A DNA stretch of 64,000 nucleotides from an uncultured Bacilli bacterium (GCA_934157235.1 CAKPHH010000006.1:9861-73860); one strand, 5' to 3'; shown: positions 1,509 through 42,598, numbered from the stretch's first letter. Notes: generated from the letters alone by a model not told the origin. Numbers and translations are program-made.

Positions 1509-2615
1509 TTAATTACTTTGTAATGTTACTTTAGTTGTATGTTCTTTATTATCTCTTATATAGGTTATTTCGATAGTGTCTCCCGCTTGATGTTGATATA
1601 ATTCATATCTTAAGTAAGCATAGTTCTTTACATTATTACCATTAATTTTGGTAATTACATCACCTTTTTTGATACCAGCTTTTTCAGCTGCTGAGTCTTT
1701 TACAGCTTCAACAACAACTGTTCCGGAAGTTATTTTACTATTGACATTGATACCATATTGACGAAGAGTAGCAGTATCCGTAGTATTAGCCATTCTTATT
1801 CCTAATACTGGCCATTTTATAGCCTCACCCTTTTCTAGAGAGTCTGCATGGTTCATAGCATATTCTATTGGAATAGCAAATCCCATTCCTTCAATTTCAT
1901 CATCGACTAATTTCATAGAACAAATACCAATTACTTCACCATTAACATTTAATAATGGACCACCTGAATTACCAGGGTTGATAGAAGCATCTATTTGTAA
2001 TACACGCATTACCCAATCACTACTTCTAGTATTTGAAACATTTACAGATACCATTCTATCCTTACCAGATAAAATACCAGACGTTACACTACCACGATAA
2101 TCAACACCTAATGGAGATCCTACAGTAAATATGGAATCTCCAATACTTACTTTCTCACTGCTACCAATATTTGCGACCATAGTCACTTCTTCTTTAGGTA
2201 CACGTAAGACAGCTAAATCTAAGTATTCATCTCCACCAAGGATAGTTGTTTCTACTTCTTTATCATTAGTAAATAAAACGTTTACTTTACTAGCACTACT
2301 AACAACATGTTGGTTAGTTAAAATATAACCATACTTGTCATCTGTTTTGTAGACAAAACCAGTTCCAGTTGACGCTAGCTGATTATTGGCATATGATTGA
2401 ACAACTACAACTGCATCATATATTTTTTCAACAGAGGCTGCTAGAGAGCTTTTTTCATAAACTTGGGTACCATTTTTAGTTATAACTGTATTTCTATTTC
2501 CAATTATTTGATCTAAAATTGGAGTCCATTTTAAAATTGATAAAGTAACGATACCTCCAATTACAAAAGAAAAGATAATTAAAGGTACTAATTTAATATT
2601 TTCTTTATTCTTCAT
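1509..2615 (-). CDS. htrA: HtrA/DegP-family trypsin-like serine protease with N-terminal TM anchor and C-terminal PDZ domain
   Basis: 368-aa ORF with a GNSGGPLLN catalytic serine motif, an N-terminal hydrophobic segment and a PDZ-like C-terminus. Confidence 0.85.
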   Translation of the reverse strand: MKNKENIKLVPLIIFSFVIGGIVTLSILKWTPILDQIIGNRNTVITKNGTQVYEKSSLAASVEKIYDAVVVVQSYANNQLASTGTGFVYKTDDKYGYILTNQHVVSSASKVNVLFTNDKEVETTILGGDEYLDLAVLRVPKEEVTMVANIGSSEKVSIGDSIFTVGSPLGVDYRGSVTSGILSGKDRMVSVNVSNTRSSDWVMRVLQIDASINPGNSGGPLLNVNGEVIGICSMKLVDDEIEGMGFAIPIEYAMNHADSLEKGEAIKWPVLGIRMANTTDTATLRQYGINVNSKITSGTVVVEAVKDSAAEKAGIKKGDVITKINGNNVKNYAYLRYELYQHQAGDTIEITYIRDNKEHTTKVTLQSN

Positions 2616-3558
2616 TATACATTGGCCTTTCTATTTTTGATAATTCTTTCCAATTTAATGGAAAGCCCATTTGATTTAATATTTTATCTATTTTTATAAT
2701 GGTTAAATTATAATTTAGAGTTTCAACAACATTTTCTAATTCATAAATCATATTTTTAAAGTCTTCTGTTACTAACATTTGCTTCATAATAATTATTAAG
2801 GCAAATAAATCACATTTTCCATAGATATATCCTTCTTCATCTTTAGGAATATTTAATAGTTTATGATAAATAGTATCAGATATTGCCTTTTGAGTTCTAT
2901 TTTCATATAAGATATCTTCATGGGCACAAAGATTTCTATAATTAGCTAGAATTGGTAAATAACCAATAAAATCATCAGTATCAATACCATAAATATTACT
3001 AATATCACGTTGGTCTTCAGGCTTTAGAATAGATATCATTTCACTAACTACACCAAATGATAGAACTTTTACTAAGATCCATAAAGGAATATAACCATAA
3101 TGGGATACATAATGCGAAGTTGCGGAATGTTGAGATCCATTTATTCTAATTTGACGTTTCATTTTTTTGATAAGATCATTTACTTGACGTTGACGCTCAG
3201 GAATCTGGGTAAAATTCTTGGCTCTTAAATAATCTTTTTCCTTGTAGCCATACTTCTTAGATAATTGGTATGAAGTTATAGACTTTAAGTTATTTTCAAT
3301 TACTAAGATATACTTAAATAAGACATTTCGAAAAGAACGATCAAATAAAAATAAACTATATAGCTCTTCAAAAGTTGTTCCTGGTATAAAGACCTTCTCT
3401 GTTTGTGACTTATAAAATAGATGACGATAACCATTTAAAAAGAAATAATTTTCTCTTAATAGAATTTGTTTAGCATACTTTTCATCTTTTATGACTAAGC
3501 CTTTATGCTTAAATATTTCTATTTGTTCATCTAATGTTTTAAATTGTTTCTCTATCAT
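2605..3558 (-). CDS. Abi_2 (AbiD/AbiF-like) abortive infection family protein
   Basis: 317-aa ORF. The N-terminus KQFKTLDEQIEIFKHKGLVIKDEKYAKQILLRENYFFLNGYRHLF matches the conserved Abi_2 N-terminal signature recalled from AbiD/AbiF. The stop overlaps the htrA start by 11 bp. Confidence 0.6.
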   Translation of the reverse strand: MIEKQFKTLDEQIEIFKHKGLVIKDEKYAKQILLRENYFFLNGYRHLFYKSQTEKVFIPGTTFEELYSLFLFDRSFRNVLFKYILVIENNLKSITSYQLSKKYGYKEKDYLRAKNFTQIPERQRQVNDLIKKMKRQIRINGSQHSATSHYVSHYGYIPLWILVKVLSFGVVSEMISILKPEDQRDISNIYGIDTDDFIGYLPILANYRNLCAHEDILYENRTQKAISDTIYHKLLNIPKDEEGYIYGKCDLFALIIIMKQMLVTEDFKNMIYELENVVETLNYNLTIIKIDKILNQMGFPLNWKELSKIERPMYNEE

Positions 3559-4727: not shown

Positions 4728-5798
4728 ATGTTTTATAAATATGAGATTAGGAATAATGGCGTTGAAGATGTTTTATACTTATTTTTGACTATGAATTATG
4801 AGTTTTCTAAAGAGATTGGGTTTAATTCTTCAGATAAGGAGATTACAAGAAGGACTAAGAACTTTATTAATAATAATGGGATTGATTATGATGGAGATAA
4901 AGTTTATTTAGTTATTGATGGAATTGTTGTTAAGAGTTTAGATATTAGTAAGAATAAGAGTGATATAGAGGTTTTAAAGGAAAATTTATATTATTCTAAT
5001 GATTATTATATGGTTACTATAAAACTTGAGAATATGGCGACAATAGAGGTTAATTTAAGGGAATATTTAATGGGATGTTTAGCTAGTGTATATTATAAAG
5101 GGCTAGAGAAGGAGACTTTGAAGGCATTAGCGGTTTTATATCGAACTTATGCTTTTAAGGAGATGAGTGAAGCTAGGGTTATAATGGCATTTAATGATTT
5201 TGTTAATTATAGACCATTATCATATTATAAATTATCTTGGTTTAATAGTTATGATGAGAATGAAAAGATATTAGATGAGGCTATTAAGGAGACTGATTGT
5301 TTATTTCTTACTTATAATCATTATTATATTTTACCGTTTGTACATTTTTGTAATTATGGGAAGACTTTAGTTGATGATAAATATAATTACTTGAGTAGTG
5401 TTTCTAGTAGTTGGGATATGGCTTCTCCTTACTATGTTAATATAAAAGATTATTCATATGCAGAACTTGGGAGATTATTGAAGAGTAATATTAGTGAGAA
5501 TAGTGATATTATGGCAATAGAAGTTGATAGTAATGGATTTATTAATAAATTACAGATAGATAAAGCTATCTTTATTGGGAAAGATATTGTTAAGTTACTT
5601 AATTTAAAATCTAGAGCAATTAATATAATAGTTAATAAAGACTATGTTAGATTTATTTGTAGAGGGTTTGGGCACTTTTTAGGTTTTAGTATATTTGGAG
5701 CTAATGAGATTGCTAAGAATGGGTGTGACTATGCAAATATTTTAAAATACTATTTTCCTAAAGTTACTTTAAACAGATATATAAAAGAACTTTCATAA
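4728..5798 (+). CDS. SpoIID/LytB domain-containing protein
   Basis: 356-aa ORF. EYLMGCLASVYYKGLEKETLKALAVLYRTYAF matches the SpoIID core EYLKGVVPSEMP...EALKAQAVAARTYAL. Confidence 0.6.
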   Translation: MFYKYEIRNNGVEDVLYLFLTMNYEFSKEIGFNSSDKEITRRTKNFINNNGIDYDGDKVYLVIDGIVVKSLDISKNKSDIEVLKENLYYSNDYYMVTIKLENMATIEVNLREYLMGCLASVYYKGLEKETLKALAVLYRTYAFKEMSEARVIMAFNDFVNYRPLSYYKLSWFNSYDENEKILDEAIKETDCLFLTYNHYYILPFVHFCNYGKTLVDDKYNYLSSVSSSWDMASPYYVNIKDYSYAELGRLLKSNISENSDIMAIEVDSNGFINKLQIDKAIFIGKDIVKLLNLKSRAINIIVNKDYVRFICRGFGHFLGFSIFGANEIAKNGCDYANILKYYFPKVTLNRYIKELS

Positions 5799-5819
5799 TA
5801 ATGAAAGTTCTATTTTTTT
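5787..5819. terminator. bidirectional rho-independent terminator between convergent genes
   Basis: Perfect 10-bp inverted repeat GAACTTTCAT-aata-ATGAAAGTTC followed by a T-run. It overlaps the stop codons of both the 4728..5798 gene and the 5810..6022 gene. Confidence 0.6.
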
Positions 5820-6022
5820 GAATTGATTAAGCCTTGAAGAGCTTTATTAGCAGCTTCTTCTAGTTCTATAATACTATCAATATATTTAGCATAATTTTCT
5901 ACAACATCAACAAATTCAGCTAGTTGAGGAGCATCTTTTCCTTGAATTAAGTTTCTAATAATACCAGCACTTTCTCTTAACTCAGAGGCTATTTTATCAA
6001 TACCTATAGATTCATTAGTCAT
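5810..6022 (-). CDS. small helical hypothetical protein in the essC operon (possible T7SS substrate or accessory protein)
   Basis: 70-aa ORF overlapping the upstream ORF by 8 bp. Predicted helical hairpin, no signal peptide and no WXG motif. Confidence 0.4.
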   Translation of the reverse strand: MTNESIGIDKIASELRESAGIIRNLIQGKDAPQLAEFVDVVENYAKYIDSIIELEEAANKALQGLINSKK

Positions 6023-6221
6023 TGCCTAATTCCTCCATTCTTTGAGTAGTTACTTTTTTATTAGGATCAAAGAGATTAGCATTATTTATAACTATTTGTT
6101 TATATGTTTCTAAGTTGTCTAGATAATTAATATTATCTTGATCAGTCCAAACTTTTTTCATTGCTTCTAAGTAGCCATAAATTTTATTAACTGCTTGGAC
6201 ATATTGTTCATATTCAGACAT
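6015..6221 (-). CDS. small hypothetical protein in the essC operon
   Basis: 68-aa ORF lying 10 bp downstream of the YukD-like gene, in the same orientation. Confidence 0.4.
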   Translation of the reverse strand: MSEYEQYVQAVNKIYGYLEAMKKVWTDQDNINYLDNLETYKQIVINNANLFDPNKKVTTQRMEELGND

Positions 6222-6230
6222 AAGTACCTC

Positions 6231-6488
6231 CTATACAAGAATTATTCTTGATCCATTTTTTAGGTCTGTATCTTTAACTGTTTTATTAACATCATACACT
6301 TGACCTGTTTCTTTACTGTAAAAGTTTGTTTCAGGACTAATGATGTAATCATGTTCAGTTATTTCTAAAAGTCCTTCTTCGATTAGTCTTTTTATGGTGC
6401 CAATCTTTTTATTGATAGGAATGAACAAGTCATAAGACTTCTCTATTAGAGGAATATATAAACATATTAATATTTTATTTTTATTCAT
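6231..6488 (-). CDS. esaB: YukD/EsaB-like ubiquitin-fold T7SS protein
   Basis: 85-aa ORF immediately downstream of essC. Its size and position are typical of EsaB/YukD. Similarity is weak, so the call rests on context and size. Confidence 0.5.
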   Translation of the reverse strand: MNKNKILICLYIPLIEKSYDLFIPINKKIGTIKRLIEEGLLEITEHDYIISPETNFYSKETGQVYDVNKTVKDTDLKNGSRIILV

Positions 6489-6497
6489 AATTACCTC

Positions 6498-9400
6498 CTA
6501 CTCATCAGATAAGAATTTAACAACGTTGGCTTTACCTTTAGTGATAACATAACCAAAGTTTGGCTCTAACTCTGCTCTTAAAAGACGAGAATTTGTTGTT
6601 ACTTTAAATGTAAATTGATTACCAATACCATTACCTATCCAAATACCTTCTGATAAATCAATATTAGTTTTATACCAAGCTTCATAATTAAGAGACTTGA
6701 TATTATCAATTGTTTCTACAACAATAAACTTAATTGTACCTAATTTAGATGTTTCAGAGATAGCGGTTGTAAATGAAGCTTTCTTAGTAGAATCCAGTTT
6801 AGTTAATAAAGTATTTATGCCAGTTATAATAACAACAATAGGATCTTCACTATTATCCGTTTGTTTAGCAGTAATAGCATTTAAAACTTCTTCTATTCCA
6901 GTTTGACAATTTCCACTATCATAAATTGTATTTTGTGGTGGATTGTCAGATAAAATACTTAGAGCATCTAGAATTAGACATTTACTATTTTGAATTTTTA
7001 GAATCATTTTAGCTAAACCAGAAATAAATGGTTGAAGTGATGTAATATCCTCTCCTGTTATATTGTAAATAGTATTTTTTAGAGAAATTGTAGATATTTC
7101 TAGAGTTTCTTTTTCGATACCTACTGGTATTGATAAAATACCTCTTAGAGATTGGATAACATCATTTTCAGTTACTGTTTCTGGTAGAATTGGAATTTTC
7201 TTAGCCTTGTATTCACAAATTTGATTTAATTTATTACAAATTACCTTAACGTAGTCAACAATCTTTTCTTCTTTAAATGGATAAGCTGTTTGGAATTCGA
7301 AGATACCATCTAAATTTATTAGACCACGGCCAAAACCTTTTGATGGTTCTTTTTTACGAACTCCAGGTAAGACACTTGAATAGTCTGAAGGATCATTAAA
7401 TTGTAAAACAACGTTTTGGGCAAAGTTTTGACGAAGACGGTATCTAACAGTATTAGGTCCATTTGTACTTAGAATAAAGACAATACCATACTTTAGACAT
7501 TCTCTGGTTATTTGACCTAGGGCTTCTTCGTAATCTGGATACATTTCTAAGAAGCCTTCAATATTATTGATAACAACAACAATTAAAGGAATTTGTTTAC
7601 CACCATGATTAATATAGAAATCATAAGAACCATTATAGTCAACAAATACTTTCTTACGATCATCCATAATTTGATTAATCATCTTAAATAAATTAGCAAT
7701 CTTTTCATTTTCAGATGATAATAATACTTCTCCAACATGTGGAGCATTTCTAAACATTGTTAATGTTTCAGCACCAAAGTCTAGTAGATAGAAATTTACT
7801 TCACTAGAGTCATGAGTTGTTATAGTGGAATAAATGATTGTTTGTAACATTAACTCTTTTCCAGAACCAGCAGATCCAAAAATAATAGCGTTCCCGTTTG
7901 AAGACAATGGTAGGGTTAAAACGTTTTGTTTTTGGTTATCTGGATCATCATATTCACCAATAATTGGGTTAATATTATTGGTATTAATTTGATAAGAGTA
8001 TTTTTGTTTTAAATCTTCAACATATATATTATTTGGTATTCGATCTAGCCATAGTTGAGGAATGGAAACAGATTCTTGTTTAGCTTCTTCTACTATGTAT
8101 TTAATAATATTAGTGATTTCCTCACCTTTAGAGGCTACTTGAACTTCATTTTGTTTATTATCAAGACTTTTTATATTATTTCCAGTATCATCGATAAAGG
8201 TAATACTTTGATCGGTCTTTTTCTTTCTCTTTTCGGCCGGATAATACTGAGCTCCTGCCCAAGCGGCTTGTCCTTCTGCAAACAACTCGTTGTAGCCTAC
8301 TTGTAAGTAGAAACGCCCTGCATTTTTTAATGAAGCAGCATCTGGACATTTAATCATATCCATACTGTCTGATTTATCTTGAACTTTTAAACAGACACGG
8401 AATTTAGAGTTTGACCAAATTTGATCATTAACTACTCCGGCTGGTTTTTGGGTTGCTAGAATAAGATGGACACCTAAAGAACGACCGATACGAGCTGTAG
8501 AAATTAATTGTTCCATGAACTCTGGTCTTTGATCCTTTAATTCGGCAAACTCATCAGAGATAATAAATAGATGCGAAATTGGGTTATCTACTAGACCTTT
8601 ACGATAAAGGGCTTGATACTTATAAATATCAATAGTACTTTCATCCAATTTATCTCTGGCTTCATTAAACATTCTTTGACGTTTACGAAGTTCACTTTGA
8701 ATAGAAGCTAAGGAACGGTTCATTTCAACAGTATCTAGGTTGGTGATAGTTCCAGCTAGATGAGGTAATTTCATACCTGTCTCTTTATTTTGGAAAACTC
8801 CGGCTAGACCTCCACCTTTATAATCGATAAGAACGAAGGATACTTCGTATGGATGGTAGTTTAGAGCCATTGATAAAATATAAGTAATGATAAATTCAGA
8901 TTTACCAGAACCGGTCATACCAGCAATTAAACCATGTGGTCCATGAGCTTTTTCATGTAAATCTAGTTTGAATAATTCGCCGGACTTATCAACGCCAACT
9001 GCTGTTTGAAGACTTTTGGTAGGATCATTTGATTTCCATCTATTTAATATATTTAACTGTTCTACCATACCAACATTATACATTTCTAGGAAGGTTAAGC
9101 TTAATGGTAGCGTTTGGTTTGCTTTAGCAATATCGATTGGAATGTTGGCTAGTTGTTTGCAACATTCGTACATATTTAAGTTTAAGTCAAAGTCAGCATC
9201 AAATTCTTTTTGTTTATTTGAAACTAACTCATTTTCAAAAATACCAGACTTTTTATCACCAATACTAATAAATGTTTTACATTCATTTGGTAAATTTACT
9301 AATCTTGGACTGATGACAATTAAACTGAAACCAACGTTTACTTGCATATCAGAAACATCTTTTAATATTTCTAGATCACGAACTGTTTTATAATCATCCG

Positions 9401-11072
9401 TTATGATTACATAGTATGGCTTATATTTTTTATAATCAGCACTATTTAGTTCTCTAGTACCATTTACATCTTTATATTTTCTTGCTTGTAGTTCTTGTTC
9501 TAGGGCAAGAGATATTTCTTTGGCTTCATCTAGAGTATTGGCAAAATAACGGATACTGCGATCATTACTCCAACAGTGTGGACATATTTTTAAATATTCC
9601 CATTTACTAGAATTTTTTTCATTAGTCATTAGAACTATTTTCAAATCTTCATAACTATGATAAGCAATCATTTGAAGAATTAAGCCTTCAATGAATTGTT
9701 GTTTATTTTCAGCAGTACCGATAATTGCGGTAATATTTTTTTCCACAAAAGATGTGGAAATAGGAACATTTTCTAGTAATCTTGATTCAGCTCCTAGTTT
9801 ATAAACTTCTTGTAGAAGATTATCGGAATCAATAGAAAAGTGTTCTTGTGGGAAGTTTATACTACCGGCTAATTCAGTAGTACCAATTCCTAAACGTAGG
9901 TCAAGAAAGTCTGGTTGATCAATTTCTCTTTCCCATAAATTTCTTTTCTTACCAAAAATTATTTCTTTTGTTTCTTGAATTGGTAAGTAATTATCTACTA
10001 GTATTTGACGTTGAATTTTCATAGCGTTTTGAATTTCTGTTCTTTTAGAGTCAACATACTTTTTATACATAGCTTGACGAGTTTCTTCTTTTTTGCGGTT
10101 TTGCTTAGTTTGATATATTTTTGTTAAACTTGGCCATAAAATCATTGTAGATAACATTACTCCGGTTGTTATTAAGGATGGAGCAGCTGTTTTAAAATCC
10201 TTTGAACCATCGGCTAAGCCTTGTAAAGCGGTTATTCCGGTAGTTGCTGACATCATGGACATGGTAAGCATTGGACCAACAGTATATATTAGAGGTGTTT
10301 TATCTTCTTGTTGTTTACCAGGAGGTGTATCAATATTAACATTTATTGGTTCTATTTTAGTTTTAAATCTTGGAGCACGATAGAAGTAATCATCTTCTTT
10401 ATAAAATTCAATGTTTTCTTCATCAGGATTATCCATTTCTGTTTGATTTTGAATCCATGGATGATCTTCTTCAAGAACTCTTTGATCATAATTAACAATA
10501 TTACTGATTCGATTAAGGATTATAGAGTCTTTTAAAACTATTATTTTTAGACCCATGATAAAGATAATGTCTCCATACTCTAGTTGTTTAGAGGCAATAG
10601 CAACATTATTAGCATAAGTTCCATACTTACTATTTAAATCTTGAATTACCCAAATTCCTTTGTTGTATACTAATCTGGCTTGTTGTCTTGAGATTAAGGG
10701 ATAATTATAACAGATTGTTGAGGAAGGATCATTTCCAATAGTTATTTCGCAGTCTCCACGGACACGAAGACGATTTATATTAGGTTCGATTGAGGGAGAA
10801 CAATATAATATTACATATTCGTTATCGGTATTTATTTTTAAGAAGAAAAGGCTGTATTCACTTAAGATAGCTGATTCTATTTCATTTTCTCCTAACATTA
10901 TTTTTGTTTCAAAGTCACTCTTTATTTTCCAGTGACCGTCAAACTCTTCAACATTAATTAGATTTCTGGTATTTCCTAAGTAATCGTTATCCGTTATCCA
11001 ATAATTTCCGGCTATTTTAGTTGGTAGTGTGAAATTGTAAATTTTAGTTTTTTTGATAAGTCTAACTATCAC
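6498..11072 (-). CDS. essC: type VII secretion system ATPase EssC/YukB (FtsK/SpoIIIE family with N-terminal FHA domains)
   Basis: 1524-aa ORF with two FHA-like modules at the N-terminus, a TM segment (VGPMLTMSMMSATTGITAL), and multiple P-loop ATPase domains (GLIAGMTGSGKSE etc.). Confidence 0.85.
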   Translation of the reverse strand: MIVRLIKKTKIYNFTLPTKIAGNYWITDNDYLGNTRNLINVEEFDGHWKIKSDFETKIMLGENEIESAILSEYSLFFLKINTDNEYVILYCSPSIEPNINRLRVRGDCEITIGNDPSSTICYNYPLISRQQARLVYNKGIWVIQDLNSKYGTYANNVAIASKQLEYGDIIFIMGLKIIVLKDSIILNRISNIVNYDQRVLEEDHPWIQNQTEMDNPDEENIEFYKEDDYFYRAPRFKTKIEPINVNIDTPPGKQQEDKTPLIYTVGPMLTMSMMSATTGITALQGLADGSKDFKTAAPSLITTGVMLSTMILWPSLTKIYQTKQNRKKEETRQAMYKKYVDSKRTEIQNAMKIQRQILVDNYLPIQETKEIIFGKKRNLWEREIDQPDFLDLRLGIGTTELAGSINFPQEHFSIDSDNLLQEVYKLGAESRLLENVPISTSFVEKNITAIIGTAENKQQFIEGLILQMIAYHSYEDLKIVLMTNEKNSSKWEYLKICPHCWSNDRSIRYFANTLDEAKEISLALEQELQARKYKDVNGTRELNSADYKKYKPYYVIITDDYKTVRDLEILKDVSDMQVNVGFSLIVISPRLVNLPNECKTFISIGDKKSGIFENELVSNKQKEFDADFDLNLNMYECCKQLANIPIDIAKANQTLPLSLTFLEMYNVGMVEQLNILNRWKSNDPTKSLQTAVGVDKSGELFKLDLHEKAHGPHGLIAGMTGSGKSEFIITYILSMALNYHPYEVSFVLIDYKGGGLAGVFQNKETGMKLPHLAGTITNLDTVEMNRSLASIQSELRKRQRMFNEARDKLDESTIDIYKYQALYRKGLVDNPISHLFIISDEFAELKDQRPEFMEQLISTARIGRSLGVHLILATQKPAGVVNDQIWSNSKFRVCLKVQDKSDSMDMIKCPDAASLKNAGRFYLQVGYNELFAEGQAAWAGAQYYPAEKRKKKTDQSITFIDDTGNNIKSLDNKQNEVQVASKGEEITNIIKYIVEEAKQESVSIPQLWLDRIPNNIYVEDLKQKYSYQINTNNINPIIGEYDDPDNQKQNVLTLPLSSNGNAIIFGSAGSGKELMLQTIIYSTITTHDSSEVNFYLLDFGAETLTMFRNAPHVGEVLLSSENEKIANLFKMINQIMDDRKKVFVDYNGSYDFYINHGGKQIPLIVVVINNIEGFLEMYPDYEEALGQITRECLKYGIVFILSTNGPNTVRYRLRQNFAQNVVLQFNDPSDYSSVLPGVRKKEPSKGFGRGLINLDGIFEFQTAYPFKEEKIVDYVKVICNKLNQICEYKAKKIPILPETVTENDVIQSLRGILSIPVGIEKETLEISTISLKNTIYNITGEDITSLQPFISGLAKMILKIQNSKCLILDALSILSDNPPQNTIYDSGNCQTGIEEVLNAITAKQTDNSEDPIVVIITGINTLLTKLDSTKKASFTTAISETSKLGTIKFIVVETIDNIKSLNYEAWYKTNIDLSEGIWIGNGIGNQFTFKVTTNSRLLRAELEPNFGYVITKGKANVVKFLSDE

Positions 11073-11160
11073 TAGAAATCACCCTCTATTCTTTTACTCT
11101 ATGCTAATTATAGCTTTTTTTCTAGCTTTTTACAATAGATAATTAAATAATTAGTGTAGG

Positions 11161-11191
11161 AAAAAAACGTTTCTTTTTTAGAAACGTTTTT
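11161..11191 (-). terminator. rho-independent terminator of pilin-LRR paralog 1
   Basis: AAACGTTTC-ttttttta-GAAACGTTT hairpin flanked by A/T runs. The essC promoter region follows. Confidence 0.6.
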
Positions 11192-11192
11192 A

Positions 11193-13250
11193 CTATTTTG
11201 TTATAGTGATGTCGCCATACCAGTTTTCAACGACTCCTGTTTCGAAGGTTGCTTCACTTGGCCCATCAGTAATTGCTTTCCAGTCAAAGACTCTACCTGT
11301 TTTATTGACAATTTCGACTAAGTCGCCATTCATTAAAACCCAAGGATTATATTTCTGGAAGGCATTTCTTCCAATATAGGTTACAGTGGATGGAATTACA
11401 ACTTTACCAGTTAGATGACAAATCGTAAAGGCATTATCTCCTATTGTTTCAACACCTTCTGGAATGATTACAGATTTAATTTCACTATAGTGGAACGCAC
11501 TGTTTCCAATTGTTTTTATAGTTGAAGGTATTTGAACATTTTCTTTTTTAGCTCCAGAATAACCATACAAGTAAGTATTATCAACGGTTCCATCGGCTTT
11601 TCGACCATAAATGAAACCATCTGTTAGTACTCCATCGCCATTATCAACGCTTGTTAAATAACCAATTGTGAATATCGAAGTACCATCAAATTTTATTTTA
11701 GCAGGTAAAGTTAGTTTACCGGTTAGGCTAAGGAAGTTTAGAGCATTTCTGCCTAATGTTTTTAGAGTTACACCATTTTTCTCTGTAGGTACGGTGATAT
11801 TATTTCGATTTGCTCCAGAGTAACCAATTATTTTTTCATAGTTAATACCACTTTTAGTTCTTTCATAGATCCAAATTTCACCGGAGGTTACTTTATTTAC
11901 ATTAAAGGCTTGAATATCTATAGATGTTACAGATGATGGAATATGAAGTTCTTTTAAACGATTACTGTATAGGGCTGAGGAACCAATGGTTTCTAGACCA
12001 TCAGGTAGATTTATTTCACTGATACCATCATAAGCAAAGGCTAGACTTCCAAGGGTTTTCAAAGTACTTGGAAGAACAACTTTCCAGTCATAAAGAGACA
12101 TACTGGTAAAAGCACCATTTGCTATTGTAGTTAGTTTTACATTTTCTTTTTCAGCTGGAACTATGAATGTTTTATCACTAAATTCCTTTAAATCACCGAT
12201 ATAGCCGATTATAGTACTGTAGTCATATGAACTATCACTATTTCTCTTATATAAGAATGAAGAACTTGGTAAATTATTATTACAAAAAGCACAGGTTCCA
12301 ATAGTGGTGTTTGGTCCAGGAACTAAAGTTGATATATCTTCAGATATCTTATTGTATTTAAAGGCTCTTGCCCCAATCTTTACTAATTCTTTTTGTAAGT
12401 TAAGTTTGGTTATTTGATTATTTAAAAAAGCTTCCTCTCCTATTTCTTGAACATTTTTAGGAATAGTTACGGTTGTTAATTTATTGTAAGCAAAAGCTCT
12501 ATAACCGATTTTTTTAACTGTACTTGATATAACTACGCTTTCTAAGCCCATATTGGCAAAGGTGGCATTATATATTTCGATGATATCTCTATTTTCAATG
12601 CGATTTGGAATTATAACATTTGGTCCACAATTAGGATTATACCAAGTTAGTCTAGCAGTGGTATCACTTAAGTCTTGAAAACTAAAACACTTTTTAGCTT
12701 CAGTCCTACTCATTTCAGTATAAGGAGTTTTGGTTGTGTCTATATTGCCATTGGCATCATAAACAACTATTTTACTTCTTTTACCTATTGGTCGGTAGTC
12801 TACTGTTTTTCTTGTATCTTGAAAAACATCAGTTTTCTTTAGCTTAGTTTTTTCTTGTAGAGCTATTTTCCAACCGGCGATGTCAGCACCATTAAAATAG
12901 TAACTTAAGTTTACTTTATCATTGATTAAATCCATGGCTGTTACAACGTAGGCATCTCCCCAGGTAGCAAATCCACTCTTTCCTAAATTGGTACGATCAT
13001 CTACGAGATTAGCTATATGGATATAGTAAGTCGTATCTGGATCATCTATTTCAAAAGTAGAATTTAGAACTTCTTTTTCAGCTTCATTTATGAAAGTTAA
13101 GGCGCTATTGATAAAAATATCTTTTCTTGAATTTGTTATTACTAAACTGATTGATGGAATAGCAATAGCCATTAGAATACCCATGATGACAATCACCGCT
13201 AGTAACTCAATTAAAGTAAAACCTTTTTTATTAATGTTTCTCATAAGCAT
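11193..13250 (-). CDS. type IV prepilin-like N-terminus fused to BspA-type leucine-rich repeat protein (paralog 1 of 5)
   Basis: N-terminus KKGFTLIELLAVIVIMGILMAIAIPS is a class III signal with a G|FTLIE cleavage/methylation motif. It is followed by repeated IPxSVxxIGxxAF LRR_5-like units and a conserved C-terminus VNKTG..FDWKAITDGPSEATFETGVVENWYGDITITK. Confidence 0.8.
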   Translation of the reverse strand: MLMRNINKKGFTLIELLAVIVIMGILMAIAIPSISLVITNSRKDIFINSALTFINEAEKEVLNSTFEIDDPDTTYYIHIANLVDDRTNLGKSGFATWGDAYVVTAMDLINDKVNLSYYFNGADIAGWKIALQEKTKLKKTDVFQDTRKTVDYRPIGKRSKIVVYDANGNIDTTKTPYTEMSRTEAKKCFSFQDLSDTTARLTWYNPNCGPNVIIPNRIENRDIIEIYNATFANMGLESVVISSTVKKIGYRAFAYNKLTTVTIPKNVQEIGEEAFLNNQITKLNLQKELVKIGARAFKYNKISEDISTLVPGPNTTIGTCAFCNNNLPSSSFLYKRNSDSSYDYSTIIGYIGDLKEFSDKTFIVPAEKENVKLTTIANGAFTSMSLYDWKVVLPSTLKTLGSLAFAYDGISEINLPDGLETIGSSALYSNRLKELHIPSSVTSIDIQAFNVNKVTSGEIWIYERTKSGINYEKIIGYSGANRNNITVPTEKNGVTLKTLGRNALNFLSLTGKLTLPAKIKFDGTSIFTIGYLTSVDNGDGVLTDGFIYGRKADGTVDNTYLYGYSGAKKENVQIPSTIKTIGNSAFHYSEIKSVIIPEGVETIGDNAFTICHLTGKVVIPSTVTYIGRNAFQKYNPWVLMNGDLVEIVNKTGRVFDWKAITDGPSEATFETGVVENWYGDITITK

Positions 13251-13361
13251 TACTCCTATTATCTAGATTTTAACATAGATTAGTTGTTTTTTAAAGAGCT
13301 TGTTTTGTAATACTTGTCTTTACATTTTGACAAAGTAAAATGTTTCCTTTTAGAAATGTTT

Positions 13362-15422
13362 TTATTCATTAGTTACAGTAATGTCACCATACCAGTTTTC
13401 AACAACTCCTGTTTCAAAGGTTGCGGCACTTGGTCCTCCGGTGATAGCTTTCCAATCAAAGCTTTTTCCCGTTTTATTAACTATCGTTGCAAAGTCTTTA
13501 TTGTTGGTACTAGTTTTGTAAAATGACATTCTACCTATTGTTTTCATAGTTGATGGAATTGTTATATCTTTTAATTGACAAGTACAAAAGGCATATTCAC
13601 CGATTTCTTCCACTCCTTCTGGAATAATTACCGATCTTGTGTCGGTGTAATAGAAAGAAAAAGGACCAATGGTTTTGATAGTTGAAGGTATTTGAACATT
13701 TTGTGCTCCAGACCTGGCGTAACCATATAAATAGGTTTTATCAATACTACCATCCGATTTTCTACCATAAACAAAACCTTCTGTTAATACACCATCACCA
13801 TTATCAATACTTGTTAAGCGATTTAAATTAAACATGTCATTTCCTTCAAAAATTATCTTTTCTGGTAAAGTTAGGGTACCTGTCAGCGATAAAAATTTGA
13901 ATGTGGAAGCTCCTAGCGTTGTTAGTTTTACACCATTTTTCTCGCTAGGTATGATGATATTATTTCTATTGGCACCAGAATAACCTATTAATTTCTGATA
14001 ATTAATACCACTTTCTGTTCTCTCATAGATCCAAATATCCCCGGATGTAACGTAATTAACATTAAAAGCTAAGGCACTAATATGAGTTACAGATGATGGA
14101 ATATTTAATTTTTGGAGACGGTTATTATAGAAAGCGTAAGTTCCAATGTACTTTAAATTACTTGGCAAGTTAACCTCAGCAATTCCGGCGTGTTGAAAGG
14201 CGTAATCTGAAATTTTAGTTACGGTGTCTGGTATTACGACCTTCCAATTTTTGGCGGATAAACTTTGAAAAGCTGCCGTACCGATTGTTTTTAATGGAAT
14301 ATTTTCCTTCTCAGGAGGAAGTATCAAGGTTTGATTTGGAAATTCACTTAAGTCTCCAATGTAACCAATTATTGTTGAATAATCATAACTTCCATCAGAA
14401 TTTCTTTGATACATAAAGAAAGCACTATCTAATTTATTATCACAAAAAGCGCAATTGCCTATCTTTGTATTAGCCCCAGGAACTAATGATTCAATAGTAC
14501 CAGTTAATTGATTTTTTTTAAAAGCATTAGCACCAATCGTTTGAAGCGTGGTTGGGAGTGTTAGCTTGTTGATTTCGTTATTTGTAAAGGCTTGAGAATC
14601 TATTCTTGTTACACTGCTTGGAATAGTTACGGTTTTTAGTTTATTATCTTGAAAGGCTCTTGCCCCAATAGTCTTAACTGTTTCTGGAATTCTAACACTA
14701 GTTATACCCATATTTTTAAAAGTATCAGAATATATTTCGATGACAGTTCTATTTTCAATTCGATTAGGAATTATAATGTCTGTTCCACAATTAGGATTGT
14801 ACCAAGTTAGTCTTGTTGTTGTGGCATTTAGGTCTTGAAAACTATAACATTTCTTGGCTTCCGTCCTACTCATTTCAGTGTAAGGCATTTTAGAAATATC
14901 TTTATTGCCATTTTCATCATAAACGACTATTTTACTTCTTTTACCTATCGGTCTATAATCAACGGTCTTTTTAGAATCTTGAAAGACATCAGTCTTTTTT
15001 AGCTTAGTTTTTTCTTGAAGAGCTATTTTCCAACCGGCGATGTCAGCACCATTAAAATAGTAACTTAAGTTTACTTTATCATTGATTAAATCCATGGCTG
15101 TTACAACGTAGGCATCTCCCCAGGTAGCAAAGCCACTTTTCCCTAGATTGGTACGATCATCTACAAGATTTGCTATATGGATATAGTAAGTCGTATCTGG
15201 ATCATCTATTTCAAAAGTAGAATCTAGAACTTCTTTTTCCGCTTCATTTATAAAAGTTAGGACACTATTTATATAGATATCTTTTCTAGATTCAGTTATT
15301 ACTAAACTAATTGATGGAATCGCAACTGCCATTAATATTCCCATGATGACAATTACGGCTAGAAGTTCGATTAAGGTAAAACCCTTTTTACTCATTTTTC
15401 TCATATGAATTACTCCTATCAT
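13362..15422 (-). CDS. prepilin-like LRR protein, paralog 2
   Basis: Same architecture as paralog 1. The N-terminal ~190 aa are nearly identical to paralog 1 at the nucleotide level (approximately 12880-13250 vs 15040-15420). The true start is probably MSKKGFT rather than the upstream M. Confidence 0.8.
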   Translation of the reverse strand: MIGVIHMRKMSKKGFTLIELLAVIVIMGILMAVAIPSISLVITESRKDIYINSVLTFINEAEKEVLDSTFEIDDPDTTYYIHIANLVDDRTNLGKSGFATWGDAYVVTAMDLINDKVNLSYYFNGADIAGWKIALQEKTKLKKTDVFQDSKKTVDYRPIGKRSKIVVYDENGNKDISKMPYTEMSRTEAKKCYSFQDLNATTTRLTWYNPNCGTDIIIPNRIENRTVIEIYSDTFKNMGITSVRIPETVKTIGARAFQDNKLKTVTIPSSVTRIDSQAFTNNEINKLTLPTTLQTIGANAFKKNQLTGTIESLVPGANTKIGNCAFCDNKLDSAFFMYQRNSDGSYDYSTIIGYIGDLSEFPNQTLILPPEKENIPLKTIGTAAFQSLSAKNWKVVIPDTVTKISDYAFQHAGIAEVNLPSNLKYIGTYAFYNNRLQKLNIPSSVTHISALAFNVNYVTSGDIWIYERTESGINYQKLIGYSGANRNNIIIPSEKNGVKLTTLGASTFKFLSLTGTLTLPEKIIFEGNDMFNLNRLTSIDNGDGVLTEGFVYGRKSDGSIDKTYLYGYARSGAQNVQIPSTIKTIGPFSFYYTDTRSVIIPEGVEEIGEYAFCTCQLKDITIPSTMKTIGRMSFYKTSTNNKDFATIVNKTGKSFDWKAITGGPSAATFETGVVENWYGDITVTNE

Positions 15423-15521
15423 CTAGATTTTACCATGGATTGTATTTTTTTTAAAGAGCTAGTTTTGTAATACTTGTCTTTACATTTTGACAAAGTAAAA
15501 CGTTTCCTTTTAGAAACGTTT

Positions 15522-17597
15522 TTATTCATTAGTTACAGTAATGTCACCATACCAGTTTTCAACAACTCCTGTTTCAAAGGTTGCGGCACTTGGTCCTCCG
15601 GTTATCGATTGCCAATTAAAACTCTTTCCAGTTTTGTTAACTATTTTTGTTAGAGAGCCATTACGACTTACCCAAGATATTTCTTTATAGAAGGCTTTTG
15701 AACCGATTTGAGTTACATTTTTAGGTATTACGACTGTTCCTTCTAACTGGCAAAGGTCAAAGGCATTATTTTTGATAGCAGTTACACTATCTGGTATTGT
15801 TACTGATTTAATATAACTACGCGAAAAAGAATTTGGGCCAATTGTGACAATAGTATTTGGTATCATTACATTTTGAGTATTTATTCCACCATAGGCATAT
15901 AAGTATGTATTGTTGATGGTGCCATCAGAATTTCTTCCGTAGATGAAACCATCTGTTAAATTTCCATCGCCATTATCGACTTTTGTTAATCTGTTTTGTT
16001 CAAAAGTCATGGTGCCAGTATACTTTATCTTGGCTGGTAATTTTAAGGTTCCTTTTAAGGATAAATGACGAAAGGCACTTTCACCTAGAGTTGTTAGAGT
16101 TACACCATTTACTTGGGTTGGAACAGTTATATTATTTCTACTTGCTCCAGAGTAACCAATTATTGTTGAATAATCTATTCCAGATGTTGTCCTTTTATAA
16201 ATCCAGATATCTCCTGAAGTTACAGAGTTAACATTAAAGGCCATTGCTCCTATAGAGGTTACAGATGATGGAATTTGTAATTGCTTTAGTTTATTATTAT
16301 AGAAAGCTTCTTTACCAATTGTTTTGACATTATTAGTTAGGTTTACCTCACCTATTGAAGATGATGAAAAAGCACTATTTTCAATAGTCGTTACAGTATC
16401 CGGAATTATTACTTTCCAGTTTGATAAAGCCATACGTTCAAAAGCACCTGATCCAATAGTTTTTAAAGAATAAGTCTGATGGGTTTTACTATCTTCTTTG
16501 GTTGCAGGAATTTTAAATATTTTGTCTGGAAATTCTGATAAGTCACCTATATAACCAGTTACTTTAGTATAGTCATATTTTCCTGAGGCATCCCTGGCAT
16601 AGATAAATGAGGCATTAGGGATATTATTATTACAAAAAGCACAAGTTCCGATAGTTGTGGTTGGGCCTGGGACTAAGATTCCTAGTTCTTCACTTAATTT
16701 ATTATATTGAAAAGCTCTAGCACCGATCGATTGTAGTGTTTTTTCTAGACTTAGTTTAGAAATATTTTGATTTCTGAAAGCTTCGCCATCAATTGTTGTG
16801 ACACTGGCAGGAATAATTACAGTGGTTAGTTTGTTATAAGCAAAGGCTCTGTAGCCAATTGTTTTTACAGATGAAGGAATCATAATATTTGTTAGACCTT
16901 TGTTATTGAAGGCATAAGAGTATATTTCCTCAACTGTTCTTCCTTCTATTTTACTTGGTATAACAACATCTGTTCCACATTTAGTATTATAGAAAGTTAA
17001 CTTGGCAGTAGTAGCATTTTTATATTGGAAACTGAAGCATTGTTTAGCTTCTTCCTGACTCAGTTCAATTTCTGGTTCAACAGATATCTTAATACCACTT
17101 TTATCATAAACTACTACTTTACTTCTAGTACCGACTGGTCTAAAACTAACAGATTTTCGAGTATCCTGATAGACGTCTTTAGCTTTCATTTTGTCTCTTT
17201 CAACTAATGTTATTTTCCAACCTGCTCTATCGACGCCATTATAGTAGTAATTGGTATTAACCTTAGAATTAATTAAACTCATAGTAGCAACGACATATGA
17301 ATCACTCCACTCGGCAAAACCACTTTTGCCCCAGTTACCACGATTATCAACTAAGTTAGCTATATGAATATAGTATGTTGTATCAGGATCATCTATTTCA
17401 AAAGTAGAATTTAAAACTTCTTTTTCAGCTTCATTTATAAATGTTAGAGCACTATTTACATAAATGTCTTTTCTGGCATTAGTAATGACTAGTCCAATCG
17501 AAGGAATGGCAATAGCCATTAAAATACCCATGATAACTATTACGGCTAAAAGTTCAATTAAGGTAAATCCTTTTTTACTGCTAATTACATTTCTCAT
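15522..17597 (-). CDS. prepilin-like LRR protein, paralog 3
   Basis: N-terminus SSKKGFTLIELLAVIVIMGILMAIAIPS, a BspA-like LRR body, and C-terminus GGPSAATFETGVVENWYGDITVTNE. Confidence 0.8.
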   Translation of the reverse strand: MRNVISSKKGFTLIELLAVIVIMGILMAIAIPSIGLVITNARKDIYVNSALTFINEAEKEVLNSTFEIDDPDTTYYIHIANLVDNRGNWGKSGFAEWSDSYVVATMSLINSKVNTNYYYNGVDRAGWKITLVERDKMKAKDVYQDTRKSVSFRPVGTRSKVVVYDKSGIKISVEPEIELSQEEAKQCFSFQYKNATTAKLTFYNTKCGTDVVIPSKIEGRTVEEIYSYAFNNKGLTNIMIPSSVKTIGYRAFAYNKLTTVIIPASVTTIDGEAFRNQNISKLSLEKTLQSIGARAFQYNKLSEELGILVPGPTTTIGTCAFCNNNIPNASFIYARDASGKYDYTKVTGYIGDLSEFPDKIFKIPATKEDSKTHQTYSLKTIGSGAFERMALSNWKVIIPDTVTTIENSAFSSSSIGEVNLTNNVKTIGKEAFYNNKLKQLQIPSSVTSIGAMAFNVNSVTSGDIWIYKRTTSGIDYSTIIGYSGASRNNITVPTQVNGVTLTTLGESAFRHLSLKGTLKLPAKIKYTGTMTFEQNRLTKVDNGDGNLTDGFIYGRNSDGTINNTYLYAYGGINTQNVMIPNTIVTIGPNSFSRSYIKSVTIPDSVTAIKNNAFDLCQLEGTVVIPKNVTQIGSKAFYKEISWVSRNGSLTKIVNKTGKSFNWQSITGGPSAATFETGVVENWYGDITVTNE

Positions 17598-17730
17598 AAT
17601 ATGCTACTCCTCTTATTATGAGTTTATCATGATTTAAATTTTTTTGAAATAGCAATAGACAATTTTGTGATTAGTTAGATTACATTACATATAAAAACAC
17701 TTCTGCAATTAGAAGTGTTTGTTAGTTAGT

Positions 17731-19794
17731 TTAACCTTTTGTTACCGTTATATCGCCATACCAGTTTTCAATAGTACCTGTTTCAAAAGTGGCAGCACTT
17801 GGTCCTCCTGTGATTGTCTGCCAGTCAAAACTTCTTCCCGTTTTATTAACTATGGTTGTTAATTCACTATTAATGCCTGTCCAACTCATTTCTTTATGAA
17901 AGGCATTTCTTCCTATTTCCGTAACTGTTGAAGGGATTACAACAGTACCTTTTAAGTGACAAACATCAAAAGCAGTTTCTCCAATACTTGTTACGCCTTC
18001 TGGTATAGTTACTGAAGCGATTTCACTATAGAAGAATGCATTTGGACCGATTATCTTGACTGTATCAGGAACAGTGACGTTATAACGACCATTTCTACCA
18101 TAACCATATAAGTAAGTTTTATTGATACTTCCATCAGAATTTCTTCCATAGATGAAACCATCAGTTAAGATACCATCACCATTATCTACTTTAGTTAGTT
18201 TGCTTAAACTAAATACGGTACTACCGGTAAATTTAACTTTTGCTGGTAGGGTTAGTGTTCCTGTTAAATATACATAGCGAAACGCTCCATCGCCCAAGGT
18301 TTGTAAAGCTACACCATTTTTTGTAGTGGGTATTGTAAGATTATTTCTATTACCACCAGAATAACCAATTATTGTTGAATAATCTATACCAGATGTTGTT
18401 CTCTTATAAATCCAAAGTTCTCCCGATGTTACTTTATTGTTATTGAAAGCTAACATATCAATTCTAGTTACTGAGGTTGGTATTTGAAGAGTTTTTAGAT
18501 TATTAACATAGAAAGCTTGATAACCTATTGTCTTTAGATTAGTCAGTTTATCTAAATTGACAGATTTAATTCCGGCGAAAGCAAAGGCATCAGATTCAAT
18601 ACTAGTTACAGTGGTTGGTATTTCAACATCCCAGTTATCTAGTGTCATACGATTGAAGGCTCCATAGCCAATTGTTTTAAGTGCAACGCCTTCTTTTTGT
18701 GCAGGAATTACAAACTTATTGTTACTAAATTCCTTTAAATCACCAATATAGCCAGTTATTCTTGTATAATCCGTTGTACCATTGGAATTTCTTTTATATA
18801 GAAATGCAGAACTTGGAAGATTATTATTACAAAAAGCACAAGATCCAATTGCAGTGTTAGCACCTGGTACTAGGACCTCTATTGTATCTGATAATAAATT
18901 ATATTGAAAAGCTCTAGCACTTATTGTATTTAAGGATTCAGCTAAATTTATTTTAGTAAGACTATTTTTCATGAAAGCTTCTGTACCGATTGTTGTGACA
19001 CTTGAAGGAACAACTACAGTAGTTAATTTATTATAGGCAAATGCTCTACTACCAATTGTTTTTATGGTACTTGGAATTTTTACGTTTGTTAGACCTTTGT
19101 TGTTGAAAGTATAAGAATGGATTTCATCAACTGTTCTACCTTCAATTTTACTTGGTATTGTTACCTCTGTTCCACAATTAGTGTTATAGTATGTTACTTT
19201 GGCAGATGTTGCACTTTTATATTGAAAACTAAAACATTTCTTGGCCTCGCCTTCACTCATGATAAGTTCTGGTTCGACAGATGATTTTATACCATTTTTA
19301 TCATAAACGATTACTTTACTTCTACTACCGATTGGTCTAAAAGATATCTTTTTTTCAGAGTCTTGATAAATGTCATGCTTGTTTAACTTTTCTTTTTCGC
19401 GTAAAAGTATTTTCCAACCTGCTCTATCTACACCATTAAAATAGTATGTAATGTTAACTTTAGAATTAACTAAATCCATAGCGGCAACAACATAGGAATC
19501 TTTCCAAGCGGCAAAGCCACTTTTTCCCCAGTTTGTACGATCATCCACTAAATTAGCAATGTGAATATAGTATGTTGTGTCCGGATCATCTATTTCAAAA
19601 GTAGAATTTATTACTTCCTTTTCAGCCTCGCCAATAAAAGTTAAAACACTATTTATATAGATATCCTTTCTGGCCTCTGTAATGACTAGGCTAATAGATG
19701 GTATAGCAACAGCCATTAAGATACCCATGATTACGATTACTGCTAAAAGTTCAATTAGGGTAAAACCCTTTTTACTGCTAATTATTTTTTTCAT
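17731..19794 (-). CDS. prepilin-like LRR protein, paralog 4
   Basis: Same N- and C-terminal modules as the other paralogs with a divergent LRR core. Confidence 0.8.
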   Translation of the reverse strand: MKKIISSKKGFTLIELLAVIVIMGILMAVAIPSISLVITEARKDIYINSVLTFIGEAEKEVINSTFEIDDPDTTYYIHIANLVDDRTNWGKSGFAAWKDSYVVAAMDLVNSKVNITYYFNGVDRAGWKILLREKEKLNKHDIYQDSEKKISFRPIGSRSKVIVYDKNGIKSSVEPELIMSEGEAKKCFSFQYKSATSAKVTYYNTNCGTEVTIPSKIEGRTVDEIHSYTFNNKGLTNVKIPSTIKTIGSRAFAYNKLTTVVVPSSVTTIGTEAFMKNSLTKINLAESLNTISARAFQYNLLSDTIEVLVPGANTAIGSCAFCNNNLPSSAFLYKRNSNGTTDYTRITGYIGDLKEFSNNKFVIPAQKEGVALKTIGYGAFNRMTLDNWDVEIPTTVTSIESDAFAFAGIKSVNLDKLTNLKTIGYQAFYVNNLKTLQIPTSVTRIDMLAFNNNKVTSGELWIYKRTTSGIDYSTIIGYSGGNRNNLTIPTTKNGVALQTLGDGAFRYVYLTGTLTLPAKVKFTGSTVFSLSKLTKVDNGDGILTDGFIYGRNSDGSINKTYLYGYGRNGRYNVTVPDTVKIIGPNAFFYSEIASVTIPEGVTSIGETAFDVCHLKGTVVIPSTVTEIGRNAFHKEMSWTGINSELTTIVNKTGRSFDWQTITGGPSAATFETGTIENWYGDITVTKG

Positions 19795-36042: not shown

Positions 36043-36053
36043 ATTTTCTTCTC

Positions 36054-42586: not shown

Positions 42587-42598
42587 ACTTATACCTCT

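Follow-up and report, generated by a model that had tools for sequence, protein, structure and literature searches.

We analysed a 64,000-nucleotide stretch of DNA from an uncultured Bacilli bacterium (GCA_934157235.1, CAKPHH010000006.1:9861-73860; hereafter "the window"), which carries a compact four-gene operon related to type VII secretion systems (T7SSs). All four genes lie on the minus strand, and their coordinates, their lengths and the 8 bp shared by the last two reading frames agree with the original prediction, which had been made from the sequence alone. The first gene, essC (TsxC; 6498-11072), starts at a GTG codon and encodes an ATPase of 1524 amino acids (aa). It is followed by p85 (6231-6488; 85 aa), a putative EsaB/YukD-like ubiquitin-fold protein (TsxB) without a C-terminal Gly-Gly; by p68 (6015-6221; 68 aa), a truncated WXG100-family protein (TsxA-like); and by p70 (5810-6022; 70 aa), a second truncated WXG100-family protein and the presumed partner of p68. 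The window is part of a 66.7-kb contig from a gut metagenome (ENA ERZ27286979).

A GGAGG-type ribosome-binding site lies 5' of each of p85, p68 and p70. A candidate promoter, recognised by its match to the consensus (TTGTAA-17-TATAAT; 11107-11135, minus strand), is located 35 nt 5' of the essC GTG start, with the ribosome-binding site AGAGGGTGA between the two. Further upstream, a terminator-like hairpin with a T-run (AAAAACGTTTC-loop-GAAACGTTTTTTT; 11163-11191, minus strand, the hairpin itself being reported on the plus strand) stands directly 3' of the last of a series of genes for pilin-like proteins with leucine-rich repeats (pilin-LRR genes) and marks the upstream limit of the essC unit. 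At the other end, a bidirectional terminator hairpin (5786-5811, both strands) closes the operon and is common to a convergent gene encoding a SpoIID/LytB domain. Because of the upstream hairpin, the promoter-like site and the closing terminator, we treat essC-p85-p68-p70 as a transcription unit of its own. The tail of p68, M-E-E-L-G, is kept family-wide and is encoded by ATGGAGGAATTAGGC, within which lies the Shine-Dalgarno site of p70 (6023-6040); we considered MEELG as a secretion signal and set it aside, as its codons (ATGGAGGAA) hold the p70 ribosome-binding site.

One genome per GTDB species was scanned for EssC relatives, which yielded 122 stretches; we retained 80 loci and inspected about 24 kb of each genome, with ~10 kb on either side of essC. 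EssC identity among these relatives ranged from 56 to 91%. They are labelled as Mycoplasma sp. CAG:877, Bacilli bacterium, Candidatus Faecimonas intestinavium, and uncultured Erysipelotrichaceae, Tenericutes or Mycoplasmatota, and come from the guts of humans, sheep, goats, yaks, rabbits and mice; we take them to resemble the reduced-genome Bacilli of the RFN20/RF39 type. The order essC, an 84-88-aa protein, a 58-186-aa protein and a 68-85-aa protein was retained in 76 of the 80 loci, the exceptions being three contig-end cuts and, at L043 and L075, an effect of the open reading frame (ORF) filter. Ratios of nonsynonymous to synonymous substitution (dN/dS) against close relatives were 0.06-0.08 for EssC, 0.03-0.06 for p85, 0.06-0.15 for p68 and 0.13-0.34 for p70; all four are functional genes under strong purifying selection. 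The chromosomal site of the operon is fixed across about 76 species-level genomes, with the order rpoA-rplQ-ecf-truA-rplM-rpsI, two small genes, a ZIP transporter gene (opposite strand), in some cases an Amidase_3 gene, and the essC operon, followed by SpoIID/LytB and Zn-phospholipase-C-like genes (both on the opposite strand), Abi_2 and HtrA, gene identities along this site being assigned from sizes and from reading of the window translations. The essC operon is part of the core genome of a large clade of uncultured gut Bacilli.

EssC scored 1026.8 bits against the TIGR03928 model (T7_EssCb_Firm; cutoff 778.4), and by passing this equivalog cutoff the ATPase proved to be the bona fide EssC it had been taken for. 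Its best solved relative was Bacillus subtilis YukB (9qks_G; 419 bits over residues 204-1009), compared with 198 bits for an actinobacterial EccC structure. Pfam detected FtsK_SpoIIIE and one FHA domain (residues 110-170), so that the expected N-terminal FHA modules were found in kind but not in the plural. From the N-terminus, the protein consists of the FHA region, two hydrophobic segments (~262-320), a DUF/stalk region and the ATPase domains D1, D2 and D3. The Walker A motif of D1, GMTGSGKS, was at least 99% conserved at every position (76 sequences), and the corresponding D2 motif reads GSAGSGKE. D3 (~residues 1330-1524) shows no match resembling Walker A and varies more than any other part of the protein (conservation 0.32-0.34). 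The FHA domains of T7SSb are in a phospho-independent state, without the phosphothreonine-binding consensus (PMC11217815), and the EssC FHA domain lacks this consensus in the same way: in 76 of 76 sequences the phosphothreonine-binding Arg of the G-R motif is replaced by N, T or S, and the Asn of the S-x-N-G motif by Tyr.

Mean p-distances among relatives were 0.56-0.59 for D3, p68 and p70, ~0.3 for the FHA, DUF and D2 regions and p85, and 0.10 for D1. In a crude co-variation analysis, after regression on D1 distance, D3 gave the highest partial correlation with both p68 (0.57) and p70 (0.53), and p85 correlated best with the transmembrane-DUF region (0.49). These rate data are suggestive of D3 as a substrate-recognition domain and of p85 as a binder of the DUF region.

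Neither p85 nor its family consensus matched Pfam or NCBIfam, and a profile search against PDB sequences returned nothing relevant. The family itself comprises 1750 clusters at E<=0.001. An AlphaFold2 model built from 58 sequences (predicted local distance difference test, pLDDT, 63.5) has the order beta-beta-alpha-beta-beta-beta, and its Foldseek matches were overwhelmingly ubiquitin-like, with YukD at the top (TM-score 0.61) and the ubiquitin-like domain of ESX-5 EccD also listed. The C-terminus ends in ...IILV, without Gly-Gly. With modest confidence, we assign p85 a YukD-like ubiquitin fold; its description as a YukD-like protein, suggested at first by size, is supported by the predicted fold, for which YukD is the best structural match. 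A database protein of 156 aa, P0393, joins a p85-like ubiquitin-fold sequence to one like p68 within a single ORF; it could be a genuine gene fusion or else an error of read-through or assembly and, if real, supports a functional link between p85 and p68.

The AlphaFold2 model of p68 (65 sequences, pLDDT 80.5) is a helical hairpin with helices at residues 3-24 and 28-49, a turn at W25 and a disordered tail whose length varies among members. A search of 1.84 billion representative proteins with the p68 profile returned 152 matches, so the family is narrow. The weakest tier of these matches included five proteins of 98-104 aa with a true W-x-G (P0370, P0376, P0377, P0389 and P0406; E-values of 1.5e-6 to 6.9e-4, library-wide), all of which pass the Pfam WXG100 gathering threshold (30-47 bits vs. 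27.3). In a joint alignment, p68 and these relatives have in common Y..VNKIY..IE.MK..W.G.DN..YI..VEEYK; relative to the full-length proteins, p68 has lost ~21 N-terminal residues and its second helix is shortened. W25 is present in 63 of 72 members and the G of WxG in 1 of 72, the window copy reading W-T-D. Judging from these alignments, p68 is a truncated WXG100 homologue. The earlier statement that no obvious WXG protein is encoded is thus literally true but misleading.

The WXG100 relatives of p68 always occur in tightly spaced tandem pairs, and it is to the second genes of these pairs that p70 is related. The p70 profile matched the second gene in three of four pairs tested (37.5, 32.9 and 18.1 bits; none in the fourth) and scored 8 bits or less against the first genes. 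Both ends of p70 align, and ~27 residues are missing at the hairpin tip, a segment that spans the partner's own W-x-G. Weak matches to the NCBIfam model NF035934 (ESAT6_2, "pore-forming ESAT-6 family") were obtained for 31 of 43 members (best E 5.8e-5) and for the family consensus (E 7.6e-4). Within the family, Y44 is present in 72 of 72 members and Asp59 in 69 of 72, and at position 55 Asn occurs in 46 members and Tyr in 11. By this comparison, p70 is a WXG100-family protein and the counterpart of the second gene in the p68-related pairs. The suggestion that the two small proteins are divergent members of the WXG100 family is therefore upheld by the p68 profile hits, the p70 match to pair partners and the p68 hairpin model.

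Several other searches with the two proteins were negative. Neither p68, p70 nor their family consensus sequences matched PF06013, i.e., all fell below the Pfam gathering threshold, and none of 43 p70 members had PF06013 among its common hits. Profile searches against PDB sequences gave nothing relevant, hhalign detected no relation between the p68 and p70 families (probability 1.4%), and no full-length WXG100 protein (a ~100-aa EsxA with WxG) was found in the operon or in the scanned window ORFs. The closest full-length relatives of p68 and p70 adjoin effector-like genes of ~400 aa. We considered the ~400-aa proteins that follow the related WXG100 pairs as a hidden EssB and rejected this, as they are without a transmembrane segment and resemble soluble effectors.

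The other membrane components of T7SSb were not found nearby. EssB, EsaA and EssA family members were not found in the ORFs scanned (1-44 kb of the window), in agreement with the original prediction, and the remainder (44-64 kb) reads by eye as the S10/spc/alpha ribosomal-protein operon. A Pfam sample of ten gene clusters flanking the operon in the 80 loci (within ~10 kb of essC) contained no essB-, esaA- or essA-like gene, and none was recognisable downstream of the distant essC genes of loci L084 and L085.

About 25 kb from the operon, between truA and rplM, the window also contains what appears to be a cargo island (35335-43435, minus strand), which was missing from the earlier account of this DNA. 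It encodes p118, p129, a DUF4176 chaperone, a 2084-aa candidate effector and a 235-aa candidate immunity gene. The chaperone (Ltc-type, 92 aa; 42308-42586, minus strand) matches PF13780 (E 1.5e-28) and PDB entry 9dcs (E 2.9e-6). Proteins of the DUF4176 family are Ltc chaperones that stabilise the LXG toxins of T7SSb and are specific to T7SSb toxin loci (PMC12478183). The start of the candidate T7SS effector (36054-42308, minus strand) overlaps the DUF4176 stop. The protein has a helical N-terminal domain and long repeats, a signal peptide was not evident by eye, and its C-terminus has a weak Transglut_core match (E 1.3e-4, 22.6 bits against a Pfam cutoff of 23). Upstream of the chaperone gene, p129 (129 aa; 42599-42988, minus strand) occupies the position of a Lap-type targeting factor, a putative role assigned from position; it had no family, Lap or PDB match in protein and family searches. 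Directly downstream of the effector, p235 (35335-36042, minus strand) might, speculatively and by position, be the immunity protein; it had no Pfam hit and no homologue in related loci.

The N-terminal 420 aa of the effector retrieved 20 homologues of 240-719 aa, with no Transglut_core hit on record in the three contexts examined; the varied lengths and the lack of Transglut_core in these contexts form the pattern of a polymorphic toxin. The effector homologue followed a DUF4176 gene in all three contexts, and a p129-like small protein was encoded upstream in two of them (L082 and L083). In the third, L085, the DUF4176-effector module directly follows essC and a p85 homologue; the EssC of this locus is 40% identical to that of the window, and its 88-aa protein matches the p85 hidden Markov model with an E-value of 6.6e-20 in a small local database. 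The effector N-terminus had no Pfam LXG match, so we use "LXG-like" as an analogy rather than as family membership, and a PDB search gave nothing. Nothing like the island was found in the ~24 kb around essC in the 80 relatives, as expected for variable toxin cargo. Taken together, this T7SS machine probably exports large toxins and not just two small proteins.

The internal repeats of the effector include many tandem heptads of the EEARVKA type, a ~100-aa unit present three times (GNYRDYGITENDTIGDMAKKLDKAVEEGK...) and AEEGKRVDxSAKAVDESGYQPRRL repeats, as a result of which many spurious opposite-strand ORFs appear in 36054-42308. Loci L084 (9246-9789) and L085 represent a distant essC/p85-like lineage in which a DUF4176 gene and an effector stand immediately 3' of the ubiquitin-like gene; beyond these lie two small ORFs (101 and 81 aa) with an 8-bp overlap like that of p68 and p70, and the locus also encodes a 470-aa protein with an HExxH motif. 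At L082, a 92-aa protein with a W-E-G motif was seen by eye.

Ten T7SS subtypes, T7SSa-j, have been defined from RefSeq by Garrett, Higginson & Palmer (2024; PMC11217815), and the parts that are nearly universal among them are the ATPase, a WXG100 protein and a YukD-like protein (PMC11217815). The operon encodes all three, plus a second WXG100 protein, and, in the regions scanned, has none of the kinases, phosphatases, FHA proteins, AAA+ proteins or beta-propellers that define T7SSc-j. It is most like T7SSb (Ess of Staphylococcus aureus; YukE-YukD-YukC-YukB-YueB-YueC of B. subtilis), with which it has in common an EssC-type ATPase whose N-terminal FHA region is without the phosphothreonine-binding Arg, a ubiquitin-fold protein of the YukD/EsaB type without Gly-Gly, small WXG100-family proteins, putative polymorphic cargo with a DUF4176 chaperone and a variable EssC C-terminus beside substrate genes. 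It differs in that essB/yukC, esaA/yueB and essA/yueC were not found next to essC (~80 genomes), in that the ubiquitin-like gene follows essC rather than preceding it, and in that two non-identical, shortened WXG100 proteins (~68 and ~70 aa) stand in place of a single ~100-aa EsxA, with the WxG glycine lost in p68 and the hairpin tip deleted in p70. The N-terminal domain of the cargo also lacks a Pfam LXG match. A cryo-electron microscopy study of YukB/YukC/YukD counts EssB/YukC in the conserved T7SSb core (PMC12637312).

Closest in simplicity is T7SSg, described from Acetivibrio and Paenibacillus, which likewise has two non-identical WXG100 proteins, a ubiquitin-like protein and an ATPase and no EssB-, EsaA- or EssA-like component (PMC11217815). 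However, its ATPase TsgC has no FHA domain, whereas the EssC described here does, and T7SSg includes the DUF5050 beta-propeller TsgL and always adjoins Tad pilus genes, neither of which was found in the scanned window ORFs or sampled neighbours. T7SSf resembles the operon in its FHA-bearing ATPase near the T7SSb branch, its YukD-like and WXG100 proteins and its occurrence in low-GC anaerobes, but it has three further components, the PPM phosphatase TsfF, the DUF6382+FHA membrane protein TsfJ and the TadZ-like AAA+ protein TsfV (PMC11217815), none of which turned up in Pfam scans of the window ORFs or of the sampled flank clusters. The p68/p70 pair recalls EsxA-EsxB (ESAT-6/CFP-10) of T7SSa, which is also encoded by two adjoining, tightly spaced genes for non-identical WXG100-family hairpins and carries a composite signal of a turn Trp and an acidic residue near the partner's C-terminus, as proposed here. 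Unlike EsxA-EsxB, p68 and p70 are ~30% shorter, have the Trp turn in one of the pair, are predicted rather than known to form a heterodimer, and belong with T7SSb-lineage machinery.

We are highly confident that the operon is a real, working T7SS core. Our preferred interpretation, which we hold with somewhat more conviction than doubt, is that it represents a streamlined and undescribed arrangement of a T7SSb-lineage core operon, conserved across the clade, with the mechanism proposed below. Our literature searches turned up neither an account of a T7SS from this clade nor any subtype past T7SSj; as the clade is known only as metagenome-assembled genomes, it is probably under-represented in the RefSeq-based survey. 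The arrangement and its miniaturised WXG100 pair are thus probably undescribed and a new T7SS variant. More tentatively, and with opinion leaning slightly against, the four genes may form a self-sufficient T7SS, in which EssC with its FHA domain, a helper resembling YukD and a heterodimer of miniaturised WXG100 proteins suffice for the export of giant polymorphic toxins. On this reading EssB, EsaA and EssA would have been lost across an order-level clade of reduced-genome, uncultured gut Bacilli; that the four genes are the only dedicated machinery in these genomes we judge about as likely as not. If true, such a self-sufficient system would constitute an eleventh T7SS subtype and the smallest known.

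In the proposed mechanism, p85 would bind the FHA/DUF region of EssC and stabilise the EssC oligomer, as YukD does for YukB, and p68 and p70 would form an antiparallel heterodimer of helical hairpins, p68 without the termini end of its hairpin and p70 without the turn end. WXG100 dimers pack antiparallel, so that both losses would shorten one and the same end of the bundle and leave the dimer with exactly one composite export signal, made up of W25 of p68 and D59 of p70. An export signal of the WxG + PhixxxD type has been described (PMC13355648), and the conserved turn Trp of p68 and acidic residue of p70 match it. The dimer would be recognised by the fast-evolving D3 domain of EssC, and its export, driven by ATP hydrolysis at the invariant D1 site, would license the secretion of large polymorphic toxins, as EsxA does in T7SSb. 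The DUF4176-chaperoned 2084-aa protein encoded 25 kb away would be one candidate toxin cargo.

A number of points weigh against this interpretation. We infer both the p68/p70 heterodimer and its recognition by D3 from sequence, and the co-variation signal that bears on them is confounded by phylogeny. The fold search with p68 was non-specific, as expected for a hairpin, and the model of p85 is of modest confidence (pLDDT 63.5) with no sequence-family match beside it. Since MEELG overlaps the p70 ribosome-binding site, its conservation may be at the nucleotide level and offers no evidence for a protein-level signal; the window copy of p70 itself has Asn59 where 69 of 72 relatives have Asp. In view of the ~400-aa effector-like neighbours of their closest full-length relatives, p68 and p70 could be Lap-type adaptors and not EsxA equivalents. 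The first 100 residues of EssC are highly conserved and the FHA region is retained; in B. subtilis, EssB/YukC is among the contacts of the YukB FHA region (PMC12637312), so that a further, unseen partner is conceivable here, and EssB, EsaA and EssA may be encoded elsewhere in the genome.

This last point is the basis of the strongest alternative, a canonical T7SSb with a split locus, in which EssB, EsaA and EssA are encoded at another chromosomal site and only the gene order and the shortened pair are unusual. We regard it as possible but doubtful. It accords with the placement of EssC by the T7SSb equivalog model and closest to YukB, with a retained and conserved FHA domain of the phospho-independent T7SSb type, and with DUF4176-type cargo, which is typical of T7SSb (PMC12478183). 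The FHA domains of YukB bind YukC in B. subtilis (PMC12637312), and inspection covered ~24 kb per genome. On the other hand, core genes are contiguous in well-studied T7SSb loci (PMC11217815, PMC12637312), and the partners were found neither within ~10 kb of essC in ~80 species nor in the 64-kb window. The distant essC/p85 locus of L085, at 40% identity, is also without recognisable essB, esaA and essA downstream, and a simple variant without EssB-, EsaA- or EssA-like components is already known (T7SSg; PMC11217815).

That the EssC module has instead been repurposed for a housekeeping or cell-envelope role, such as exporting p68 and p70 for wall remodelling or sporulation-like development, and is no toxin secretion system seems to us improbable. 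The operon does occupy a fixed core-genome position beside ribosomal-protein and ecf genes, its neighbours include cell-wall enzymes (Amidase_3 directly upstream in many relatives and the convergent SpoIID/LytB-domain gene), and T7SS roles in sporulation are reported elsewhere (PMC11406982). However, many loci have no amidase gene upstream and about 19 have no SpoIID, D3, p68 and p70 evolve fast in a way more typical of substrate-specificity arms races than of housekeeping, and both the DUF4176 and polymorphic-effector island in the window and the homologous module after essC/p85 in L085 point to toxin export. Least credible of all, a decaying and non-working T7SSb remnant that has lost its membrane partners would account for the local absence of the canonical partner genes, the truncated WXG100 proteins and their degenerate WxG, but not for four ORFs intact in about 76 species, dN/dS values of 0.03-0.34, a D1 Walker A motif conserved to at least 99% at each position, the retention of a terminator and of coupled ribosome-binding sites, or truncations common to the whole family rather than sporadic lesions.

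Which parts of T7SSb are essential and which are adaptations to a thick cell wall is an unsettled question on which this operon bears. If the streamlined arrangement does work unaided, a natural system of EssC, a YukD-like protein and shortened WXG100 proteins would define the minimal machine and offer a small target for reconstitution and structural work. The two truncations at the same predicted end of the bundle would likewise serve as a naturally occurring deletion experiment on the bipartite WxG + PhixxxD signal. Members of the clade, none of them cultured, are widespread in the guts of humans, ruminants, rabbits and mice, and the conservation of a T7SS alongside giant effectors that vary suggests that these reduced-genome bacteria join in contact-dependent competition. 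If the partners are located elsewhere, the finding reduces to an unusual split locus and an atypical WXG100 pair. Either way it is of value for annotation, as none of p85, p68 and p70 is currently recognised by Pfam or NCBIfam.

Upstream of the operon are five tandem pilin-LRR paralogues of ~680-690 aa (11193-21954, minus strand), each of which opens with a prepilin-type N-terminal methylation motif and continues with BspA-type leucine-rich repeats. None of the 80 related loci has these genes, which represent a strain-specific insertion separating the amidase gene from essC. We considered them as part of the secretion system and rejected this, given their absence from the relatives and the terminator-like hairpin and promoter-like site that intervene. 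They had been listed as the upstream context of the operon; they are indeed present, but this context is not a meaningful one. At L083, a 1374-aa N_methyl protein is encoded a few genes upstream of the DUF4176-effector module. The SpoIID-like gene noted downstream is also real, although the match is at the level of the SpoIID/LytB domain and below the SpoIID equivalog cutoff; a link to sporulation through SpoIID is weakened by this domain-level match, by the convergent orientation of the gene and by its absence from about 19 loci.

Downstream of rpsI is a conserved pair of genes (33098-34200, minus strand), with the ZIP transporter gene between the pair and the essC operon. The pair encodes a holin-like protein of 113-152 aa with several hydrophobic segments and a ~214-aa protein without a Pfam match (clusters c12 and c15), and was present in 32-40 related loci. 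Together with Amidase_3 and SpoIID/LytB, it places cell-wall-related genes on the flanks of the operon in many genomes. Two adjoining surface-type proteins are encoded at 25386-28326 (minus strand), one of 563 aa with a dockerin type I domain and Listeria-Bacteroides repeats and a 419-aa neighbour with four Listeria-Bacteroides repeats; dockerins are unexpected in a lineage of reduced-genome Bacilli. Finally, the minus strand of 1509-3558 carries an Abi_2 gene (abortive-infection-like) that shares 11 bp with the start of the gene for an HtrA-type protease. This Abi_2 gene was found at 68-91% identity in 68 related loci, and is thus unusually stable for a defence-type gene.

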